This document shows, one piece after another, positions 1 to 9,445 of a stretch of 64,000 bases of DNA. The notes below the pieces were generated by a model that did no database searches, was not told where the DNA came from, and saw only the letters and a program-made list of their open reading frames with translations. This DNA comes from Candidatus Bathyarchaeota archaeon (lineage in GTDB: Archaea; Thermoproteota; Bathyarchaeia; 40CM-2-53-6), in assembly GCA_963726255.1 (NCBI GenBank), contig CAVSBL010000002.1, positions 1,888,001 to 1,952,000 of the forward strand, read 5' to 3'. Numbering within the stretch: position 1 is the first letter of the stretch; the number at the start of each line of letters is the position of its first letter. Position numbers and translations under genes: made by a program.

Positions 1-471
1 TCTGAGAATCCTGAGTTCGTGCGGCTCAGCGTAGATGATTTGCGCGACATGTTCTTCGGCCCCATCGAACCCCCGAAGGACGAGGAATTCGTTTACAACA
101 CACTCGCCGCCCTGCGCGACCTAACGCTCAGAAGAGGCCTTAGCGTTGTGTTGGATTCCACATCGCCCAAGAACAGCACGCGCAATTTTCTCCTCCACAC
201 AAGGGTCCCAGGCGTCATAACGGTCCTGGTGCTAATGATCGTCGAGAAGGATGAGTTGGAAGGGCGAAACCGTGAACACGGCGTACAAGGCGCTGTCGAA
301 GCCTGGGATAAAGTGTGGGAAAAGCCTACAGCGAACATGCCTGCACTGAAATTTAGAAACAACTCCTTGAATGAATTCGAAACCAGCTACTATGTTCTAA
401 CCGACCTTCTCAGAAGTAAGGTCCACCCCTACAGGCGCCGATTCTTCGCGGACCTTTACCCTAGGCTGTGA
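1..471 (+). CDS. AAA_33/P-loop kinase-like protein, 5'-truncated by window edge
   Basis: Frame is open from position 1 (SENPEFVRLSVDDLR...). 'LSVDDLR' and 'VVLDST' resemble small-molecule P-loop kinases. Walker A would lie upstream of the window. Confidence 0.55.
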   Translation, partial: SENPEFVRLSVDDLRDMFFGPIEPPKDEEFVYNTLAALRDLTLRRGLSVVLDSTSPKNSTRNFLLHTRVPGVITVLVLMIVEKDELEGRNREHGVQGAVEAWDKVWEKPTANMPALKFRNNSLNEFETSYYVLTDLLRSKVHPYRRRFFADLYPRL

Positions 472-479
472 TCATCCAT

Positions 480-953
480 TCAATCCAGTGTCTTTTTCCC
501 TCTGAGGGGCCCCGTTTTGGATATGAAGATAAGAGTTACTGCGAGCGTGAGAGCCGTCACCCACTGTGCCATGTTAGATTGGAATTCAGGAACCGCGACT
601 TCTAGTTGGAAGTTTGCCGTATTCGATGAATTCGCTGTCACATTAACCGTTACGCCGTCAGCCCTGTATCCTGGAACATCAACCGTAACAGAGTACGTCC
701 CAACTGGGACACGCATGAGGTAGACTCCACTCATACCGGAAAATACTTGGTAAGTCTGTTGGCCGTCACTGGCATGAACTTCCGCCCAATCAACAGGGTA
801 CCCGTCGATTCCGACTACGCGTCCGGTAATCTCTCCTCCCAGCTCGCCGTAGTACTGCTGCGGCGATTGAGCCTCAACCAACCTACACCCAACCAGCAAC
901 AACGCAACAAAGAGTGACGCCATTAGAATAGGCCGCATAAGTTCCCAATCCAA
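480..953 (-). CDS. Secreted carboxypeptidase-regulatory-like (beta-sandwich) protein with PEF-CTERM-like sorting signal
   Basis: N-terminal signal peptide. 'GEITGRVV..GYPV..AEV...GVY...VPVGTYSVTVDVPGY' is the CarboxypepD_reg-like pattern. C-terminus has VPEF + TM helix + basic tail. Confidence 0.7.
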   Translation of the reverse strand: MDWELMRPILMASLFVALLLVGCRLVEAQSPQQYYGELGGEITGRVVGIDGYPVDWAEVHASDGQQTYQVFSGMSGVYLMRVPVGTYSVTVDVPGYRADGVTVNVTANSSNTANFQLEVAVPEFQSNMAQWVTALTLAVTLIFISKTGPLRGKKTLD

Positions 954-960
954 CAGCTGA

Positions 961-987
961 GTTAGTTAGTTGACTCAACTAACTGAC
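961..987. promoter_or_regulatory. Perfect palindrome, candidate operator
   Basis: AGTTAGTTGA-C-TCAACTAACT (964-984), extendable to 961-987 with one mismatch. Lies between a minus-strand TTTATT box (~988-993) and the TTG start at 953. Confidence 0.55.
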
Positions 988-1156
988 AATAAAAGAGTTA
1001 GGAGTAGAGCATCACAGGGAATGTGAATTCCACAGCGATGAGTAGAGATCCACAAGAGATTGTAGACGTCTACTAGGTGTCCGTGATAAAGAGACATTCT
1101 TGAGATTCGGAGTCGGCTTACCCTTAATACGTTCTTTAGCGCCGAAGTACGTTGGC

Positions 1157-1339
1157 GCCGGGGTAGCCTAGCTAGGTAAGGCGACAGAGCCACCGGACAA
1201 CCGGGACGTCCAACCTCGAGATCTGTGAAGTATGGGCCAAGATAGCTGTTGGTCCTCTGGGCCTCGTGGGTTCAAATCCCGCCTTAGAGGATAATGACGG
1301 AACCTTGGAGGGCGGGGGAAACTCCCACCCCCGGCGCCA
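1157..1339 (+). tRNA. tRNA-Ser(CGA) with three introns (approx. 30/31: 1188-1213; 37/38: 1221-1243; 59/60: 1277-1322), encoded CCA
   Basis: Removing the three segments gives GCCGGGG-TA-GCCT AGCTAGGTA AGGC-G-ACAGC CTCGAGA GCTGT-T-GGTCC TCT GGGCC-TC-GTGGG TTCAAAT CCCAC-CCCCGGC-G-CCA. This is a full cloverleaf with long variable arm and G discriminator. The T-loop intron forms a clear BHB. TTAATA box at ~1124-1129. Confidence 0.9.
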
Positions 1340-1460
1340 TTAACTGAACCAATAATTCTGGTCTGAACATGTTTATCACGGCTTAGGAGGTAGGAAGTTG
1401 GCTGCTGCTTTTGGCTTCGACGGAATTATCGTCTCTTGACCAGTTGCTTGGGAGGTAACG

Positions 1461-2366
1461 TCAAGCACATCTGACGTTACCAAAGATTCCCATGATCTCC
1501 TTGATCAAAATCGCTGAAGTGAAGGCAGTCGTTCCCGCTCGTGAGTCGCAACGTGGTGAGTACTCAACGATGTCAGCCGCGATTATGTCTAAATCTGCGA
1601 TGCCGTGCAATATCTCAATCAACTGTCTTGTGGTCAAACCACCTGGTTGCGGATTTCCAACTCCGGGTGCATAAGCGGGATCTAGACAGTCAAGATCGAT
1701 GGATAGGTATACAGGCCCGCCTTGCAGCCTCTCTCTTATTGCAGAGCTGACAGTATCGCATCCTTTTGTGTACACGTCGTGCGACGTGTATTGCATGAGA
1801 TTAAGTGACCTGATGCGGTCATCTTGTTCCTTCGTCGAGGCTCTTATGCCAACGAAGCAAACCAGTCCCGAACTTGAGCCCTTTTCATCCAGTATTCTCG
1901 AGACGACGGTGGCGTGGGAGTACGGGGTATTGCCATAACTCATGTATAGATCTGGATGGGCGTCGAAGTAAAGTAGTGACAGTCGATTCCTCTGAATTTC
2001 CGATGCAACCATGAAGGCTGGGTACGTAACAAAATGATCTCCACCAAGGAAAAGCAATGGACTCCTGCCATGATCGTGAAGGGTTGCCGTCGAGTAGAGA
2101 GCTTTGTGAAGACTCGAATGTTTCTTAACTCTTACATTGCCGTGGTCGCAGACCTTCCAACGCTCCGTCAAGTCATCCCCTCGTTCCGTGAAGTGATTAT
2201 ACAGTAGACTGCTCGTTGCCCGCCTAATGGCGTCCGGGCCTCCGGCAGCACCGCGCGTGAAGGAAGAAGTGGCATCCCATGGTATGCCTACGACCACGAA
2301 ATCCTTACCGTGAGAACGAGTTAGGCCAAAGAAGCTCTCGCTCCGTTTGAATTTCAAACTACGCAA
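1461..2366 (-). CDS. speB: Agmatinase (ureohydrolase/arginase family)
   Basis: Motifs GIPWD...GAAGGPDAIR, GGDH, DAHPD, SHAT, SIDLDCLDPAYAPGVG.P.PGGL, DIVE. Confidence 0.85.
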   Translation of the reverse strand: MRSLKFKRSESFFGLTRSHGKDFVVVGIPWDATSSFTRGAAGGPDAIRRATSSLLYNHFTERGDDLTERWKVCDHGNVRVKKHSSLHKALYSTATLHDHGRSPLLFLGGDHFVTYPAFMVASEIQRNRLSLLYFDAHPDLYMSYGNTPYSHATVVSRILDEKGSSSGLVCFVGIRASTKEQDDRIRSLNLMQYTSHDVYTKGCDTVSSAIRERLQGGPVYLSIDLDCLDPAYAPGVGNPQPGGLTTRQLIEILHGIADLDIIAADIVEYSPRCDSRAGTTAFTSAILIKEIMGIFGNVRCA

Positions 2367-2474
2367 ACTTGCTCATCGCGGATAGCCGCCGCTACTTGTC
2401 TTATGGCTTTGGATATCTCGTTAGTCTGATTGCTGTAGGATTCAGCTACTAGGTTACTTCGCAGGTGAGGCTTG

Positions 2475-3209
2475 CTACTTTTCGAGAGTGACTTCGAAAT
2501 TCTCGCCGACCTTTAGTCCATGCCAACGTCTATCAACCCCGACATTCCGCGTGTTCCTGACTCGCATAAGGTCTCGCGGGGGGTCGCTAGTCTCATCAAG
2601 TCTGAAGTCTACCACGATCTCACATGCCCCTTCCAATCTCTTGTAGGCCCAGTCGCTGAGCACTCCTTTCATTACTCCGGCGACATAGACCATCTTACGT
2701 ATTCCCGCGATCGGAAGAAACCGAGTTAGCTCCAACTCCACCCAAGCTCTTTCGTCGTTAAACCGGGCAAATAATGAATCGTCATCGATAATCATCAGAT
2801 GTTCTGGGTTTGGGGTTCGCCGCATATCTTCCCGGGACATGATGAGGCTGATGTCTGCAACTTTCAAGGAATCCCAATGGTACTTTTCCTTTGATTTCTG
2901 GCCAAGCGAGATCGTGTACGCGTCGAAGATCTGCAGTCTCTCATATTCAGCATCTACGAACGTGTTCTCAAGTTGAGATGCATCCAGCCCGAGACGCTTG
3001 AGCTGTGAGCGCACCTGGTCAGGTGGTTGGGTTCCCGCCTCATAGTGAACACTTCTGTTTTCTGTGCTCTTCAACCAACCAGCTGCGATCGTAACGGAAG
3101 CGTTGAACCATTGCGAGGCCGGATCATACTCTACCAGAATGTTAGATCCTGCAGGCACTGGCCCAGAAGTTAGATCCTCAATTATCGGAATTCGTGTCAA
3201 AGCTGCCAT
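2475..3209 (-). CDS. KaiC/RAD55-like RecA-fold protein with degenerate Walker A
   Basis: 'TRIPIIEDLTSGPVPAGSNILV' is the typical KaiC-like N-terminus, but the P-loop reads EYDPASQW. C-terminus 'VVDFRL....RDLMRVRNTR'. ATG at 3209 preferred over the ORF-track TTG at 3257. Confidence 0.7.
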   Translation of the reverse strand: MAALTRIPIIEDLTSGPVPAGSNILVEYDPASQWFNASVTIAAGWLKSTENRSVHYEAGTQPPDQVRSQLKRLGLDASQLENTFVDAEYERLQIFDAYTISLGQKSKEKYHWDSLKVADISLIMSREDMRRTPNPEHLMIIDDDSLFARFNDERAWVELELTRFLPIAGIRKMVYVAGVMKGVLSDWAYKRLEGACEIVVDFRLDETSDPPRDLMRVRNTRNVGVDRRWHGLKVGENFEVTLEK

Positions 3210-3317
3210 TGAGGAAGTGTGAGATGTACATTGTAGGTTTTTCTGTGTGTGGGTCAACTGGTGCGAATGTCCGATTTTGCGCTCCTCTTTTTGTGCGTAT
3301 CAGTGTTGCGGTAGAAC

Positions 3318-3337
3318 AAATTTGAACTTTCAAATTT
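3318..3337. promoter_or_regulatory. Perfect inverted repeat, candidate protein-binding site
   Basis: AAATTTGAA-CT-TTCAAATTT in the divergent intergenic region between the KaiC-like gene and the integrase remnant. Confidence 0.4.
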
Positions 3338-3467
3338 CGTGATCATAATGGAAATCGGAAAATGAGGCCACCCAGAAGTTTATCTTCAAAGTTAGCGAAT
3401 AGATGTTCGGTGTGAGATTTGACAGAGATTCCTTCGAAAGACGAAAGTACGCCCCCAGGTTCGCGGA

Positions 3468-3683
3468 GTGAATTCAACTCACACCCGTCGGTTCAAATCC
3501 CACCCCCGGCGCCATTTTCCGAACCTACGGCGGGTCATGGGTGAGTTCTTCACCTACGCCTTCCGGATGCAAAAACAGGGCTACAGACCATCAACCATCC
3601 GCAGCGCCATCAGCAGCCTAAAAGCGGTAGCAAAGAAAGCCAACCGACTCAATCAGGATGCTGCGGACATCATCTCTCTCTGA
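3468..3683 (+). pseudogene. Truncated tyrosine-integrase-like fragment carrying the att sequence in frame
   Basis: RFKSHPRRH is the translated tRNA 3' end. It is followed by 'FTYAFRMQKQGYRPSTIRSAISSLKAVAK', resembling the N-terminal core-binding helices of archaeal tyrosine recombinases. No catalytic domain follows. Confidence 0.55.
3486..3516 (+). repeat. att-like copy of the mature (spliced) tRNA-Ser 3' end
   Basis: CGTCGGTTCAAATCCCACCCCCGGCGCCATT matches the spliced tRNA sequence CGTGGGTTCAAA|TCCCACCCCCGGCGCCATT at 30/31 positions. 3490-3516 is exact. Confidence 0.85.
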
Positions 3684-3711
3684 TGAAACGAAAACTCAAG
3701 AAATAGAGGGG

Positions 3712-3730
3712 TGAGCTCTTTCAGAGCTCA
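3712..3730 (-). terminator. Hairpin at stop of APC permease followed by T-rich tract on minus strand
   Basis: TGAGCTCT-TTC-AGAGCTCA (8-bp stem) includes the stop codon. The minus strand continues ...TCTATTTCTTGAGTTTTCGTTT. Confidence 0.45.
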
Positions 3731-5347
3731 TTCTGGAGGTACTTCTTTGTGAAGCAGGTCTAGGTCGATTCCGGCGCGCTTGCGATATGACCGGGCAAGG
3801 TAGTAGATCACCACGCCCGCTGCATATATTCCAACTACGAATCCCGTTGAGTATGGTCCTACGGGTCCTGAGAATGCTGGCAGTGCGAAGGACGAGTAGA
3901 GAATGAGGCTGAACAGGATTACACTGATCAATCCAGAGATGCTGATCAGGGGGATTCCAGCAATCTTCTTCTTGACGAGTTCTGGTGCGGCGTCAAACAT
4001 GTCCTTTCTTACGTAGGGGAATAGTAGGGCAGAGACACCCGTTATCCAGAAGCATACCGAGAAAATGACCGTGTAGTTCACTACGTAAGTGAAGAATGGT
4101 GTGAACACGTACAATGTCATCAGTACCCAAGCGACGAATGCGATGGTTACGCTGGCCACCCAAGGTTGTCCCGATTTGCTTACGGCCGCGAGCTTCTCAG
4201 GTATCACGCGGTCGAAGGACCATGCGAAGACGTTTCTGACACAGATGGTCATCATCACAATTAGTAGCAAGAACGTCCAAAGGAAGAAGCTAGCTCCTAT
4301 CAGAGCGTTAGCCAGTGGATTTCCTGCCAGTATGCCCGCGAAGAAGTTCACTACGGGGGGTACAGGGATTGGGTTAGCTGAGGGGTTATTGAGATTGAGA
4401 TAAGCTATTGCGTCGTTGAACTTCGCGCCTACAACGTTGTAGTATAGAGCGAAAGTGACCGCGTAGAACACGAAGCCAAAGAGCAATGAGAACAGAATTG
4501 CCTTGTTCTGGTTCTTCTGCGGTTCCTTTACCTCTCCACCGATGTACACAGAGTACGTGAACCCTATGTACACCCAGTATCCGATTGGGATTGAGAGAAG
4601 TGTAGCAATCAGCGAGGGGGCGGGTACGGAATACCCTTGGGTTGTGGCTGTTGAGATTATCGAATTGTAGGCATCCGGGAGATTCGTTGTCTTGAGCATG
4701 AAGGCATTGAAAATCTGGATGAACTGCGCATTATTGTAGGATAAGAATACGATTAATGTTGCGAAGGAGCCTACCGTAGCGATGACCATCCCGTAGGTCA
4801 ATATTCTTCGAACCAATCGGGTTGGCATTAGTAATATGACCGTAACCACGGCCATCACTATCGTGCCGACGACCCAAGTATAGGTTGGCGTCGCGATAAG
4901 ACTGCCGAATGTGATCATGCCTGCATCTGCAGTTTGATATCCTAATGTCAGTATTGCTGAAGCGAGTGCATAGTTCGTGATCCATGCCGTGTAGATTCCG
5001 ATTCCTAGGAATTGTGACCACGTGAAGCCCCAGTTGGACATGAACCCAATCGCTGGATGAAGTATCCTGCCGTTATAGACGTAGTCTCCGCCAGAGCGGG
5101 GCATAGCTCCGGCAAGCAAACCGTAGCACAGACCGTTGAAGACCGTCAGGATTGTTCCGATGATGAGCATACCGAAAATGTTTGCTCCTGGGAACAGGCC
5201 ACCCACGAACAGCGGCGTGACCATTATCACGAGGCCCAGAGCGAAGCCGAGGGTGTTGAAAGCAAAAGCATCGAAGAGGCCGAATTCTCTTGTTAGACCC
5301 GAAGCGCGTCGTACGAACATTTCAGGTCTTTTGTGACTTTCTGACAA
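3728..5347 (-). CDS. APC-family amino acid/polyamine permease (paralog 1)
   Basis: About 12-14 hydrophobic segments. Motifs FVRRASGLTREFG, MPRSGGDYVY, GGEVKEP, FAWSFDR. Confidence 0.9.
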   Translation of the reverse strand: MSESHKRPEMFVRRASGLTREFGLFDAFAFNTLGFALGLVIMVTPLFVGGLFPGANIFGMLIIGTILTVFNGLCYGLLAGAMPRSGGDYVYNGRILHPAIGFMSNWGFTWSQFLGIGIYTAWITNYALASAILTLGYQTADAGMITFGSLIATPTYTWVVGTIVMAVVTVILLMPTRLVRRILTYGMVIATVGSFATLIVFLSYNNAQFIQIFNAFMLKTTNLPDAYNSIISTATTQGYSVPAPSLIATLLSIPIGYWVYIGFTYSVYIGGEVKEPQKNQNKAILFSLLFGFVFYAVTFALYYNVVGAKFNDAIAYLNLNNPSANPIPVPPVVNFFAGILAGNPLANALIGASFFLWTFLLLIVMMTICVRNVFAWSFDRVIPEKLAAVSKSGQPWVASVTIAFVAWVLMTLYVFTPFFTYVVNYTVIFSVCFWITGVSALLFPYVRKDMFDAAPELVKKKIAGIPLISISGLISVILFSLILYSSFALPAFSGPVGPYSTGFVVGIYAAGVVIYYLARSYRKRAGIDLDLLHKEVPPE

Positions 5348-8128: not shown

Positions 8129-9445
8129 CTACCGGTCAGTTCCGCACCATTCTGTAACCGCGACGCAGAGAATTTTCGCCGTCTTCACTATTGAATCGAT
8201 TGAAACGAACTCGTCGACGACGTGAGCTTGTTCTGTAGGTCCGGGTCCTAAGGCGATTGAGGGAATCTGCAGCAGGTTCATGAGGTGGGCCCCGTCGTCC
8301 CATGAGTCTAAGGCGGAGATTCGCGCTTTTACGGAAACTGCGTCAGCAGCGGACATAACATTACGGACTAGTGGATGATCACGTTCCACTTCCATGGGGG
8401 GAAGGTCCATTATCCACTCGATTCGGGCAGGGTGTTCTGCCAGCCAACTGTCCGCTTGACAAGAACGGGCAAGATGTTCTTCGATTTCTCTCTTGACTTT
8501 GGTTCCATAGCCTTTCTCATCGCGATCGGCGGGAAGGTATTGAATGTCCATCTCCATCTCGCACTTGTCAGGTATCGTCGCCCAGAAGTCGCCTGACTTG
8601 ATTATTGTTGGCATTATTCTGGGTGCGGATAACAACTCGTGTTTCTTCGCGGACCTTTTAGTCCAATCCGCCTCTAAGGTTCGAAATGCGTCGAGAACTA
8701 TGGATGCCTTCTCGATCGCGTTGACTGCTCCCCCCTCGCTCCAGTGTGGGTGGTTCAGTTCCGCATGACCAGCCCGCCCATCAACAATCGCCCTCGCCCA
8801 GAGCAGACCTCTGGTCGCAATCCAGAGGTTCAAATTGCTGGGCTCTGGGATTATCGCAGCGTCAGCCTTGTAGCCTCGATCAATGCAGGCGACTGTACCC
8901 ATTCCATTGATTTCCTCGTCAAGGACGGTTTCTATGATCAAGTCGCCCTTCAGTTTCAACTTGGAACTGCTAATCACTTTCGCGGTGGCGATTATTGCTG
9001 CTGCTCCAGCTTTCATGTCGCAAGAACCGCGGCCAAAGATCTTACCATCCTTGACTTCTCCTCCCCATGGATCATGTTTCCATTTTGACGCGTGGTCGGC
9101 TGGTACGACGTCGATGTGTGCGTTGAGGATTAGTGAACGGCCGTCCCCAGAGCCTTTGAGTGTGGCTGCGAGCATGGGCCTCTTGTTGAAATTTTGTCCC
9201 TTGATGTAGAACGGGTGGTGTGATAACTTGTTGATGTCGGGTTCCCAAAGGTCTACTTTGAATCCGAGCTCTTTGAGTTCTTCAGCGACGTATTCTTGGC
9301 ATTGTTTATCATCGAATGCTGCCTGCCCAGGGTTGGGTGAGGTTGTGTTGAACTTTACTAGGTCGCTGGTGAGCTTAACGATTTGGTCGGTCCTTTTCTC
9401 AACGGCGTTTAGTAGCGTCTTTGTTTCATCTTGCAAGTGAAACAT
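8129..9445 (-). CDS. M20 ArgE/DapE-family deacylase
   Basis: NAHIDVV, GRGSCDMKAG, DEE, IIPEP, GPG...AHVVDE. Confidence 0.9.
   Translation of the reverse strand: MFHLQDETKTLLNAVEKRTDQIVKLTSDLVKFNTTSPNPGQAAFDDKQCQEYVAEELKELGFKVDLWEPDINKLSHHPFYIKGQNFNKRPMLAATLKGSGDGRSLILNAHIDVVPADHASKWKHDPWGGEVKDGKIFGRGSCDMKAGAAAIIATAKVISSSKLKLKGDLIIETVLDEEINGMGTVACIDRGYKADAAIIPEPSNLNLWIATRGLLWARAIVDGRAGHAELNHPHWSEGGAVNAIEKASIVLDAFRTLEADWTKRSAKKHELLSAPRIMPTIIKSGDFWATIPDKCEMEMDIQYLPADRDEKGYGTKVKREIEEHLARSCQADSWLAEHPARIEWIMDLPPMEVERDHPLVRNVMSAADAVSVKARISALDSWDDGAHLMNLLQIPSIALGPGPTEQAHVVDEFVSIDSIVKTAKILCVAVTEWCGTDR

Follow-up and report, generated by a model that had tools for sequence, protein, structure and literature searches.

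A 64,000-nucleotide (nt) stretch of a Candidatus Bathyarchaeota archaeon genome (assembly GCA_963726255.1, contig CAVSBL010000002.1, positions 1,888,001 to 1,952,000; this whole stretch is referred to here as the window and is numbered from its first letter) contains a tRNA-Ser(CGA) gene with an intron in its T-loop and, at a spacing of 2.1 kb, an uninterrupted copy of the spliced 3′ end of that tRNA. Our analyses revealed that this second copy is an attachment (att) core inside an integrase reading frame, and that the window holds a relic, not a functional member, of the SSV-type integrase class, a name that we use in its organizational sense only. The T-loop intron, at tRNA position 59/60, is polymorphic in the genus, belongs to one of two sequence families (A-type and B-type) and occurs both in tRNA genes and in element-side att copies. 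On balance, we lean toward reading the locus as the decayed remnant of successive integrations of SSV-type elements into the 3′ part of tRNA-Ser(CGA), with the intron acquired through att recombination.

The window was compared with the rest of its own genome (G000, 2.42 Mb, with contig label C2) and with relatives in a set of 23 genomes of a genus of Bathyarchaeia metagenome-assembled genomes (MAGs), in 20 of which an ortholog of tRNA-Ser(CGA) was found and scored. A metagenome scan for intron-bearing att yielded 84 sites from the best 80 of 101 stretches, and the public sequencing runs X2, X4 and X19 were examined as contigs. The arrangement seen in the window is genuine. Specifically, record 8 of X2 spans 1310–2809 with 1 mismatch, record 18 of X4, from a second study, spans 1310–1679, and contigs from two studies join position 1310 to the agmatinase gene downstream of the tRNA gene.

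The tRNA-Ser(CGA) gene, its repeat and the integrase relic

Direct reading placed att copy 1 at 1269–1341 (plus strand), where GGTTCAAATCCC (1269–1280) and ACCCCCGGCGCCATT (1327–1341) are split by the intron; joined, they equal positions 3490–3516 exactly, over 27 nt. This second, uninterrupted copy (plus strand; direct reading and genome search) corresponds to the spliced tRNA from the T-loop through the 3′ end, and the central observation of a first-pass annotation of this DNA, that the repeat matches the spliced tRNA while the gene has a 46-nt T-loop intron, holds to the nucleotide. Because TCCC is repeated at both ends, the 46-nt insert can be placed anywhere from 1277–1322 to 1281–1326. 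Past the 27 nt the match between the copies goes on imperfectly (CATT..C.GAACC.A), and within the repeat the intron cuts a 23-nt identity block into 11 + 12 nt. A 25-mer search allowing ≤3 mismatches hit the 2.42-Mb genome 10 times, 3 times exactly, against 0 hits for a reversed control; chance is therefore excluded. Exact or near-exact copies outside tRNA genes lie at C2:124270, 913421, 1249144, 1250398 and 257672, and in all five a conserved integrase N-terminal module stands in front of the copy. Just one further tRNA gene has this 3′ end, tRNA-Ser(GCU) at C2:1248189, which also has a 59/60 intron (42 nt, unrelated in sequence to that of the window) and is followed downstream by two intron-less att copies. 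We found no tRNA gene in the own genome that has this 3′ end but lacks an intron, and the first-pass suggestion that an intron-less tRNA-Ser might match the repeat better thus finds no candidate there.

The tRNA-Ser(CGA) gene itself (1157–1339, plus strand) was recognized by eye and by in silico splicing with ARAGORN. It has three intervening sequences and an encoded CCA (1337–1339), and is the sole Ser(CGA) candidate in its genome. By eye, the acceptor strands are GCCGGGG/CCCCGGC with a discriminator G, a D-arm and a long variable arm are present, and the anticodon stem ACAGA/TCTGT encloses the loop CTCGAGA, which gives the anticodon CGA. Intron 1 (1189–1214, plus strand, 26 nt) lies between the 5′ strand of the anticodon stem and the anticodon loop; its boundary, set by eye, is also the commonest among the ARAGORN tRNA-Ser(cga) calls, and an intron of variable sequence is found here in every ortholog displayed. 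Intron 2 (approximately 1228–1249, plus strand, about 20–22 nt) precedes the variable arm, with approximate boundaries drawn only by eye. Intron 3 (1277–1322, plus strand, 46 nt, A-type) occupies T-loop position 59/60. ARAGORN reported 0 tRNA genes in the window and an Rfam search over 900–4000 gave no tRNA match, because multi-intron genes defeat both tools. When the three segments were removed in silico, in 41328 splice combinations, tRNA-Ser(cga) was the commonest ARAGORN call (2609 of 28404), in a test that is permissive and tolerates many intron 2 boundaries. Brute-force scanning with ARAGORN -i was too permissive to fix intron boundaries, and ARAGORN -i on the whole genome produced numerous spurious long-intron calls. 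A second tRNA-Ser(cga) called by ARAGORN at C2:1225067 was rejected as a class-I tRNA with a mis-set intron. In the own genome most tRNA genes appear interrupted; ARAGORN -i made 35 calls, many of them with implausible introns.

A minimum free energy (MFE) fold, a manually set register and covariation together point to a bulge-helix-bulge (BHB) in intron 3. The T-stem forms the outer helix and CCCGCC/GGCGGG the inner one, both kept in the MFE fold, while the manual register gives TTCA/GGAA as the central helix, 3 of its 4 positions being paired, between the bulges AAT and ACT. A cut after the second bulge base gives the intron as 1277–1322, and splicing there would restore TTCAAAT-CCCAC, so that the T-arm becomes GTGGG-TTCAAAT-CCCAC, as in the intron-less orthologs, and the cloverleaf is restored. 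Among 31 A-type homologs, 81.2% of cells are paired, versus 42–52% when the partner strand is slid, and compensatory changes occur at 6 of 21 pairs. In 59 B-type sequences, 88% of cells are paired and the central helix TTCA/TGAA pairs in 59 of 59. Thus both types keep a predicted BHB with covariation. In RNA of the integrase context, the outer helix of this BHB contains one mismatch. The own genome encodes two EndA-family proteins (PF01974, E values of 1e-22 and 6e-14). The 3′ end of the intron (GGTGAAAATCC) was considered as a duplicated att and rejected, because its resemblance is explained by BHB symmetry, in which TTCA has TGAA as its pairing partner and the two bulges are the same.

Copy 2 is embedded in integrase sequence on both sides. 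Upstream lies an integrase N-terminal module, here called IntN1 (3244–3489, plus strand), made up of an upstream region and a TTG-started frame from 3419 (MTEIPSKDESTPPGSRSEFNSHPS..). This module is 78–82% identical to the DNA before the second and third att copies of contig C155 in the relative G033, and 80% identical to G016:C45:87477–87608. Downstream lies a fragment of a SAM-like integrase N-domain (3517–3683, plus strand), which is frameshifted near 3531 and ends at about residue 70 of the 325–358 of full-length relatives. The first-pass annotation had placed the repeat in frame in an integrase-like open reading frame (ORF) at 3468–3683. This is correct only in part: the authentic integrase frame runs across att as ..SVQIPPPAPF.. 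in ORF 3419–3544, and a base near 3531, extra relative to the unbroken 95-aa frame of G033, shifts the reading into the MGEFF.. frame of ORF 3468–3683. The base is missing from an X2 contig.

The integrase assignment itself is upheld by homology. ORF 3468–3683 has only a sub-threshold Pfam match (PF13102, E value of 0.087), but the fragment has homologs in 18 of the 23 genomes, with open frames of up to 387 aa, and is homologous to full-length relatives of 325–358 aa, two of which (L031 and L032) match PF00589 with E values of 6e-19 and 8e-20. In these full-length relatives, the tRNA T-arm is translated near the N-terminus. The window fragment lacks a catalytic domain, and its frame ends about 70 residues into a protein of about 330. 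A PF00589 profile search of the own genome gave no match, and only three N-terminal fragments of this integrase family are present there; taken together, the two results are read as absence of an intact integrase. With the fragment broken and no catalytic domain found in the genome, the locus is no longer mobile. Elsewhere, the gene is split at att beside the tRNA in the manner of int(N)/int(C): G016:C45 reads tRNA and Int(C), followed further on by IntN1 and att, the same layout is found in L134/L191 and G033:C155, and G032 shows tRNA plus Int(C).

Several further observations concern integrase sequences of this kind. An X4 contig (from a wetland run) skips 154 nt within 3529–3684, so that most of the integrase fragment is gone; in a related strain the relic has apparently decayed further. 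Additional integrase N-terminal fragments at C2:2285683–2285952 and C2:2254016–2254276 have the 3′ ends of other tRNAs in frame; one consists of N-module, att and C-part, and the other stands directly behind a multi-intron tRNA. L098 (G003:C5) and L094 (G002:C42) encode a full-length 325-aa integrase that reads the same att in the frame GSNPTPGA; upstream of it we noted, by eye, a tRNA-like sequence with the loop TTCTAAT and a possible CUA anticodon. Finally, a conserved motif, GTGTGTGG(G/A)TC.A.TGGTGCG ... AATTTGAAC, occurs ~200 nt upstream of integrase N-modules; in the window, at 3246–3270, it overlaps the start of an ORF termed orf260, and it recurs near C2:913250, 1249190 and 1250220.

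The 59/60 intron in tRNA genes and in element-side att copies

In tRNA-Ser(CGA), the 59/60 position is intron-less in 14 genomes, occupied by an A-type intron (46 nt) in 3 (G000, G033 and G018) and by a B-type intron (about 42 nt) in 4, with G034 counted twice for its one intron-less and one B-type copy. In tRNA-Ser(GCU), about 14 genomes are intron-less, none has an A-type intron and 3 have a B-type intron. The polymorphism extends to close strains: in two X2 contigs and one X19 contig, the sequence corresponding to position 1280 continues straight into ACCCCCGGCGC. The X19 contig, from an RNA library, is 97% alike and is missing the 59/60 intron while retaining the other two; it therefore resembles DNA, or a primary transcript, from an allele without the 59/60 intron.

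Introns at this position are not confined to tRNA genes. Among 18 intron-bearing att sites in the genus, 8 have no tRNA 5′ motif within 230 nt. Seven of these 8 follow an integrase N-module, and the remaining one, at 9161 in G034:C6, has tRNA variable-arm sequence (by eye). Moreover, 6 or 7 contigs (G033:C155, G016:C45, G034:C6, L134/L191, L135 and L182) have two or three att copies interrupted by introns of different sequence. If each such pair arose from one crossover, the element and the tRNA would both have carried an intron, and it is from these junction pairs that we infer intron-bearing attP sites on the elements. Introns in element-side att copies indicate that introns do not simply block integration. 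The first-pass annotation had mentioned the idea that tRNA introns protect against such integration, and neither the element-side introns nor the junction pairs with an intron in both copies bear this out.

The two intron families differ in their relation to the integrase frame. Among the metagenome sites listed, an integrase C-part follows 20 of the 58 sites with introns of 38–43 nt and 0 of the 26 with introns of 45–47 nt. L161 and L164 each have a full-length integrase frame (327 and 326 aa; PF00589, E values of 5e-22 and 6e-20) that continues from the T-arm across a 42-nt B-type intron. Unique B-type introns are exactly 42 nt long in 43 of 61 cases, with the integrase frame open in 42 of these 43, and unique A-type introns have a stop in the integrase frame in 24 of 24. 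The open frame through B-type introns was set aside as proof of coding, as it is weak evidence when a second frame is equally open. The intron families are also unevenly distributed over the two types of N-module that precede element-side copies: A-type 9 and B-type 1 for IntN1, A-type 2 and B-type 10 for IntN2. This association fits an exchange on either side of the intron.

Sister genomes and the history of the locus

Comparison with sister genomes showed that the interval between the two copies is a mosaic, not one element. The flanks of G033 are 96–97% identical to the window and its tRNA has the same intron (44 of 46 nt identical). There, the tRNA is followed by a different 2.5-kb element, an N-module with a second intron-bearing att, a homolog of 1342–1452, DNA homologous to an own-genome C2 region 1.77 Mb away and, at the end of the array, an N-module with a third intron-bearing att. 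The agmatinase and orf260 genes, which lie between the copies in the window, were not found in G033 (95% complete). The relic around copy 2 is present on another G033 contig, C113, as IntN1, intron-less att, fragment and permease gene, 87–97% identical overall and 87% for the integrase fragment alone. In G032, a complete, intron-less tRNA-Ser(CGA) runs directly, in attL form, into the same integrase fragment with the same truncation point (81% identity over 193 nt), and the fragment therefore belongs to an old integration at tRNA-Ser(CGA); the copy-2 relic is thus old. G018 has a homologous intron and nothing of 1342–3700 within 8 kb. Two X2 joints, 3489→1269 and 3387→1297, resemble the junctions of an excised circle; they were rejected as evidence of excision because they match the G033-type array (IntN1, intron-bearing att, 1342–1452), which is also present in X2.

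The reading that we favor would account for these features as follows. Small integrative elements would have targeted the 3′ part of tRNA-Ser(CGA), from the T-loop to the acceptor end. The left flank of copy 2 is the IntN module of a later element and its right flank the truncated C-part start of an earlier one; copy 2 would then be an internal junction of a tandem array, namely the old tRNA end displaced by the later integration. Since no intron-less tRNA with this end is found in the genome and the G032 relic stands beside an intron-less tRNA, copy 2 plausibly preserves the pre-intron end. The intron would have entered the tRNA at or after the later integration, by att recombination with an intron-bearing partner, the element's attP acting as vector with no de novo origin of the intron. 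More generally, site-specific recombination to one side of the intron may carry introns from tRNA-Ser genes to elements and back, and an intron-less displaced copy together with an intron-bearing tRNA would be the product of one intron-bearing and one intron-less partner. Core and overlap region are probably provided by the T-arm dyad GTGGG-TTCAAAT-CCCAC with its 7-nt loop. The identity block sets in 2 nt ahead of the T-loop, which favors exchange in the T-loop and delivery of the intron by the incoming attP; a block that begins just before the loop is reportedly the usual signature of a loop crossover (Williams 2002). The polarity of the gain rests on genome counts and on G032 rather than on a species tree.

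A wider form of this idea we entertain only tentatively and regard as doubtful: Bathyarchaeia elements may carry a spliceable BHB intron inside attP, and thus inside the integrase coding sequence, and may install, swap or remove the 59/60 intron as they integrate and leave. If so, the 42-nt form would be read through as 14 extra residues. With its in-frame stops, the 46-nt form would give integrase only if the host tRNA-splicing endonuclease and ligase spliced the integrase mRNA, which would make this a mobile genetic element (MGE) gene whose expression depends on tRNA splicing.

Several findings weigh against intron delivery by elements, and some of them speak for an exchange of strands further downstream. 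Set beside G033, the own tRNA resembles att1 up to and including the intron and turns into the att2-type flank only in its 3′ exon, in keeping with an exchange 3′ of the intron or a subsequent homologous deletion but not with a crossover in the T-loop. One and the same downstream relic stands behind A-type introns (own genome, L130 and the second att copy of G033) and behind a B-type intron (L162). A Mantel test with partial correlations over 10 usable sites related intron to upstream sequence with r 0.34 (p 0.04) and intron to downstream sequence with r 0.15 (p 0.10), which, for these 10 sites only, does not favor linkage of the intron to the integrase C-part. The intron-less state of G032 could be a loss rather than ancestral. 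The window has no third att copy that would close the array, and the origin of the agmatinase and KaiC-like (orf260) genes inside the interval is unexplained. With respect to introns within integrase genes, two of the three frames are open in 35–36 of the 36 unique 42-nt forms. The searches turned up no element, free or in attP form, that combines an intact integrase with an intron in att, and the known junctions of IntN, intron-bearing att and Int(C) (G016:C7/L152 and L138) are all decayed. A scan of viral contigs gave 0 hits with the intron pattern and 1 with the intron-less 23-mer, the latter an unrelated AT-rich tRNA carried by a phage.

The alternative to which the first three of these findings point, and which we consider somewhat unlikely, is that the intron pre-existed in the tRNA and that an intron-less element exchanged strands either in the 3′ exon (CACCCCCGGCGCC) or at the junction of intron and exon 2, where the sequence GGGGG-AAACT-CCCAC imitates a T-arm. 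The intron would then have been neither barrier nor passenger, and copy 2 would be the element's own intron-less attP. Such an exchange puts the switch from att1-like to att2-like sequence where the comparison of G000 with G033 places it, inside the 3′ exon; it agrees with intron variants that, over those 10 sites, correlate with the upstream tRNA body at least as well as with downstream sequence, and with identical downstream relics behind different introns. It would also explain why intron family tracks N-module type, as expected if the intron stays on the left arm, although the same association would arise from target preference, IntN1 for Ser-CGA and IntN2 for Ser-GCU. Set against it are the GGTTCAAATCC kept 5′ of the intron position in every element copy, which would be unconstrained under an exchange 3′ of it, the start of the identity block ahead of the T-loop, and G032, which couples the same integrase relic to an intron-less tRNA. 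More improbable, in our judgment, is that the copies are unrelated and that their spacing came from rearrangement between dispersed att/IntN repeats, which would make the intron difference uninformative about the order of events. The genus offers signs of such rearrangement: G033 DNA past the 1342–1452 homolog leads into a homolog of C2:122339–124115, beside the intron-less att at 124270, the G033 tRNA array has a different end flank with the copy-2 ortholog on another contig, gene order around the agmatinase gene differs in G014, and a recombination tract in L130 begins at the tRNA 5′ end. But G032 joins this integrase relic directly to tRNA-Ser(CGA), and copy 2 therefore did originate at that gene; the adjacency of tRNA and agmatinase is common to L130 and the contigs of two studies and is therefore not recent noise.

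The explanation put forward in the first-pass annotation, a single element between the repeats whose attL was destroyed by a T-loop intron that arose later and trapped it, appears very improbable. Its basis is real in that the tRNA has the intron and copy 2 does not, the intron splits the identity block, and intron-less alleles exist in close strains and beside the G032 relic; indeed, its idea of an intron-less past of the target, recorded at this locus, finds support in modified form. A single trapped element, however, is unsupported. Integrase sequence lies on both sides of copy 2, which therefore looks like an internal Int(N)-att-Int(C) junction rather than the attR partner of one element, and a separate integrase-start relic adjoins the tRNA itself. 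The intron is already present in relatives that lack the islet (G033 without agmatinase and orf260, G018 without 1342–3700), a finding that the annotation itself had named as refuting its reading. The integrase is frameshifted and truncated, at a point common to G032 and G033, and with no intact PF00589 gene found in the genome, trapping by an intron is not needed. Integration into intron-bearing sites is, moreover, evident elsewhere from the two-intron pairs.

Known systems and neighboring genes

SSV-type (type I, suicidal) integrases, described for SSV1/SSV2, pTN3 and pT26-2, have attP inside the integrase gene (PMC7253208, PMC8371274). The family described here resembles them in that att lies inside the ORF and is translated, integration at a tRNA 3′ end splits the gene into int(N) and int(C), and att is read in alternate frames (here VQIPPPAP versus GSNPTPGA). 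Tandem integration as outlined by Badel et al. (2020, PMC7253208) likewise yields hybrid Int(N)-att-Int(C) junctions. Unlike the suicidal integrases covered in those accounts, which are met in geothermal environments and hyperthermophiles, the present ones belong to a Bathyarchaeia genus of mesophilic habitats. The nearest solved proteins in a phmmer search of Protein Data Bank (PDB) chains were XerA 4A8E (E value of 7.7e-11) and 5HXY, and the same search gave no match to an SSV1/SSV integrase chain at E ≤ 0.01. In addition, att can here carry a BHB intron, whereas the word "intron" has 0 occurrences in the available text of PMC7253208.

The closest precedent is that of Sugahara et al. (2012, PMC3293823), who describe the gain of a 24/25 intron in Caldiarchaeum subterraneum tRNA-Thr(GGU) via an intron-bearing attP. 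In their proposal, an attB without intron receives one from attP, and the pieces are subsequently scattered by homologous recombination. Both cases have an att-region intron that is polymorphic among close genomes and displaced tRNA fragments beside recombinase DNA. The Caldiarchaeum case, as presented there, concerns one locus, the tRNA 5′ part and a pNOB8-type element with att outside the integrase gene; here, by contrast, the intron lies inside the integrase reading frame, two intron families share one position in two tRNA-Ser genes across dozens of independent contigs, and junction pairs have introns in both copies. SSV-type integrases and the proposal of attP as intron vector are thus already in print; the available text of the review PMC8371274 cites only Sugahara et al. 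for the latter, and our literature search on BHB, integrase and attP returned PMC3293823 alone. In the literature searched, supplements excluded, we came across neither a description of an intron within the translated att of a suicidal integrase nor any tRNA intron analysis for Bathyarchaeia. A census of multi-intron tRNAs for this Bathyarchaeia genus likewise seems absent from the literature searched.

Fujishima et al. (2010) reportedly described intron transposition among Thermoproteales tRNAs, with no DNA-level vehicle identified. The present introns are alike in that related introns occupy the same noncanonical position in different tRNAs with shared local sequence, the B-type intron being found in both Ser(CGA) and Ser(GCU), whose 3′ ends are identical; they differ in that the shared local sequence is here an integrase att site. 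The Thermoproteales transposition serves as a positive control in bioRxiv 10.64898/2026.10.13.758758, which, in its available part, gives no general route by which archaeal tRNA introns arrive at new positions. A proposed protective role of tRNA introns is cited in the Discussion of PMC3293823. In agreement with that hypothesis, the intron here sits inside the 23-nt att identity block, but element-side introns and recombination between two intron-bearing partners leave simple protection unsupported here. That introns and split genes protect tRNAs against integration is an idea said to go back to Randau and Soll (2008).

How archaeal tRNA introns reach new positions is still an open matter, and the sole explicit DNA-level proposal that we found concerns the single Caldiarchaeum locus (PMC3293823). 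This genus provides natural replicates, with a single tRNA position, two intron families, two target genes that share one att, strains as close as about 97% identity that differ in intron presence, and junctions that keep both recombination products. With so many replicates, the ideas that the intron rides on att and that it protects the target can be tested by ordinary recombination and splicing assays and by long-read metagenomes.

Within the interval, the tRNA end runs into a relic of another integrase C-part start (1337–1452, plus strand; ..APLTEPIILV* by translation) with element-derived DNA; this region matches the DNA behind the second att copy of G033:C155 at 93% identity and is also present in L130. 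An agmatinase gene of the arginase family follows (1461–2366, minus strand; PF00491, E value of 1.5e-70; TIGR01230, 175.1 bits versus a cut-off of 174.3); in G014, the agmatinase gene lies elsewhere, in a different gene order. The next gene, orf260 (2475–3257, minus strand), is a KaiC/RAD55-like ATPase paralog on the strength of an ESM Atlas match of 0.97 to KaiC clusters, taken as a lead only, and had no Pfam, NCBIfam or PHROG match. Its family has at least 9 paralogs in the own genome, several of them inside or beside tRNA-linked att relics, and may be a standard gene of these small elements; C2:1249304–1249972 and C2:299222–299938 are among the paralogs. Beyond the integrase fragment lies an amino-acid permease gene (3728–5347, minus strand), in a flank shared with G033:C113 at 97.4% identity.

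The metagenome contig L130 shares 1153–1855 with the window at 94.5% identity, including the tRNA with three introns, 1342–1452 and the 3′ 395 nt of the agmatinase gene, while its upstream AAA_33 gene is only 71% identical (versus window 232–472), a pattern that looks like a recombination or transfer tract starting at the tRNA 5′ end. An ORF with a CarboxypepD_reg domain (480–953, minus strand) separates the AAA_33 gene of the window from the tRNA. Relatives do not have it in the matching spacer, and their tRNA follows the AAA_33 gene within about 100 nt; this ORF is an insertion upstream of the tRNA in the own lineage and G033.

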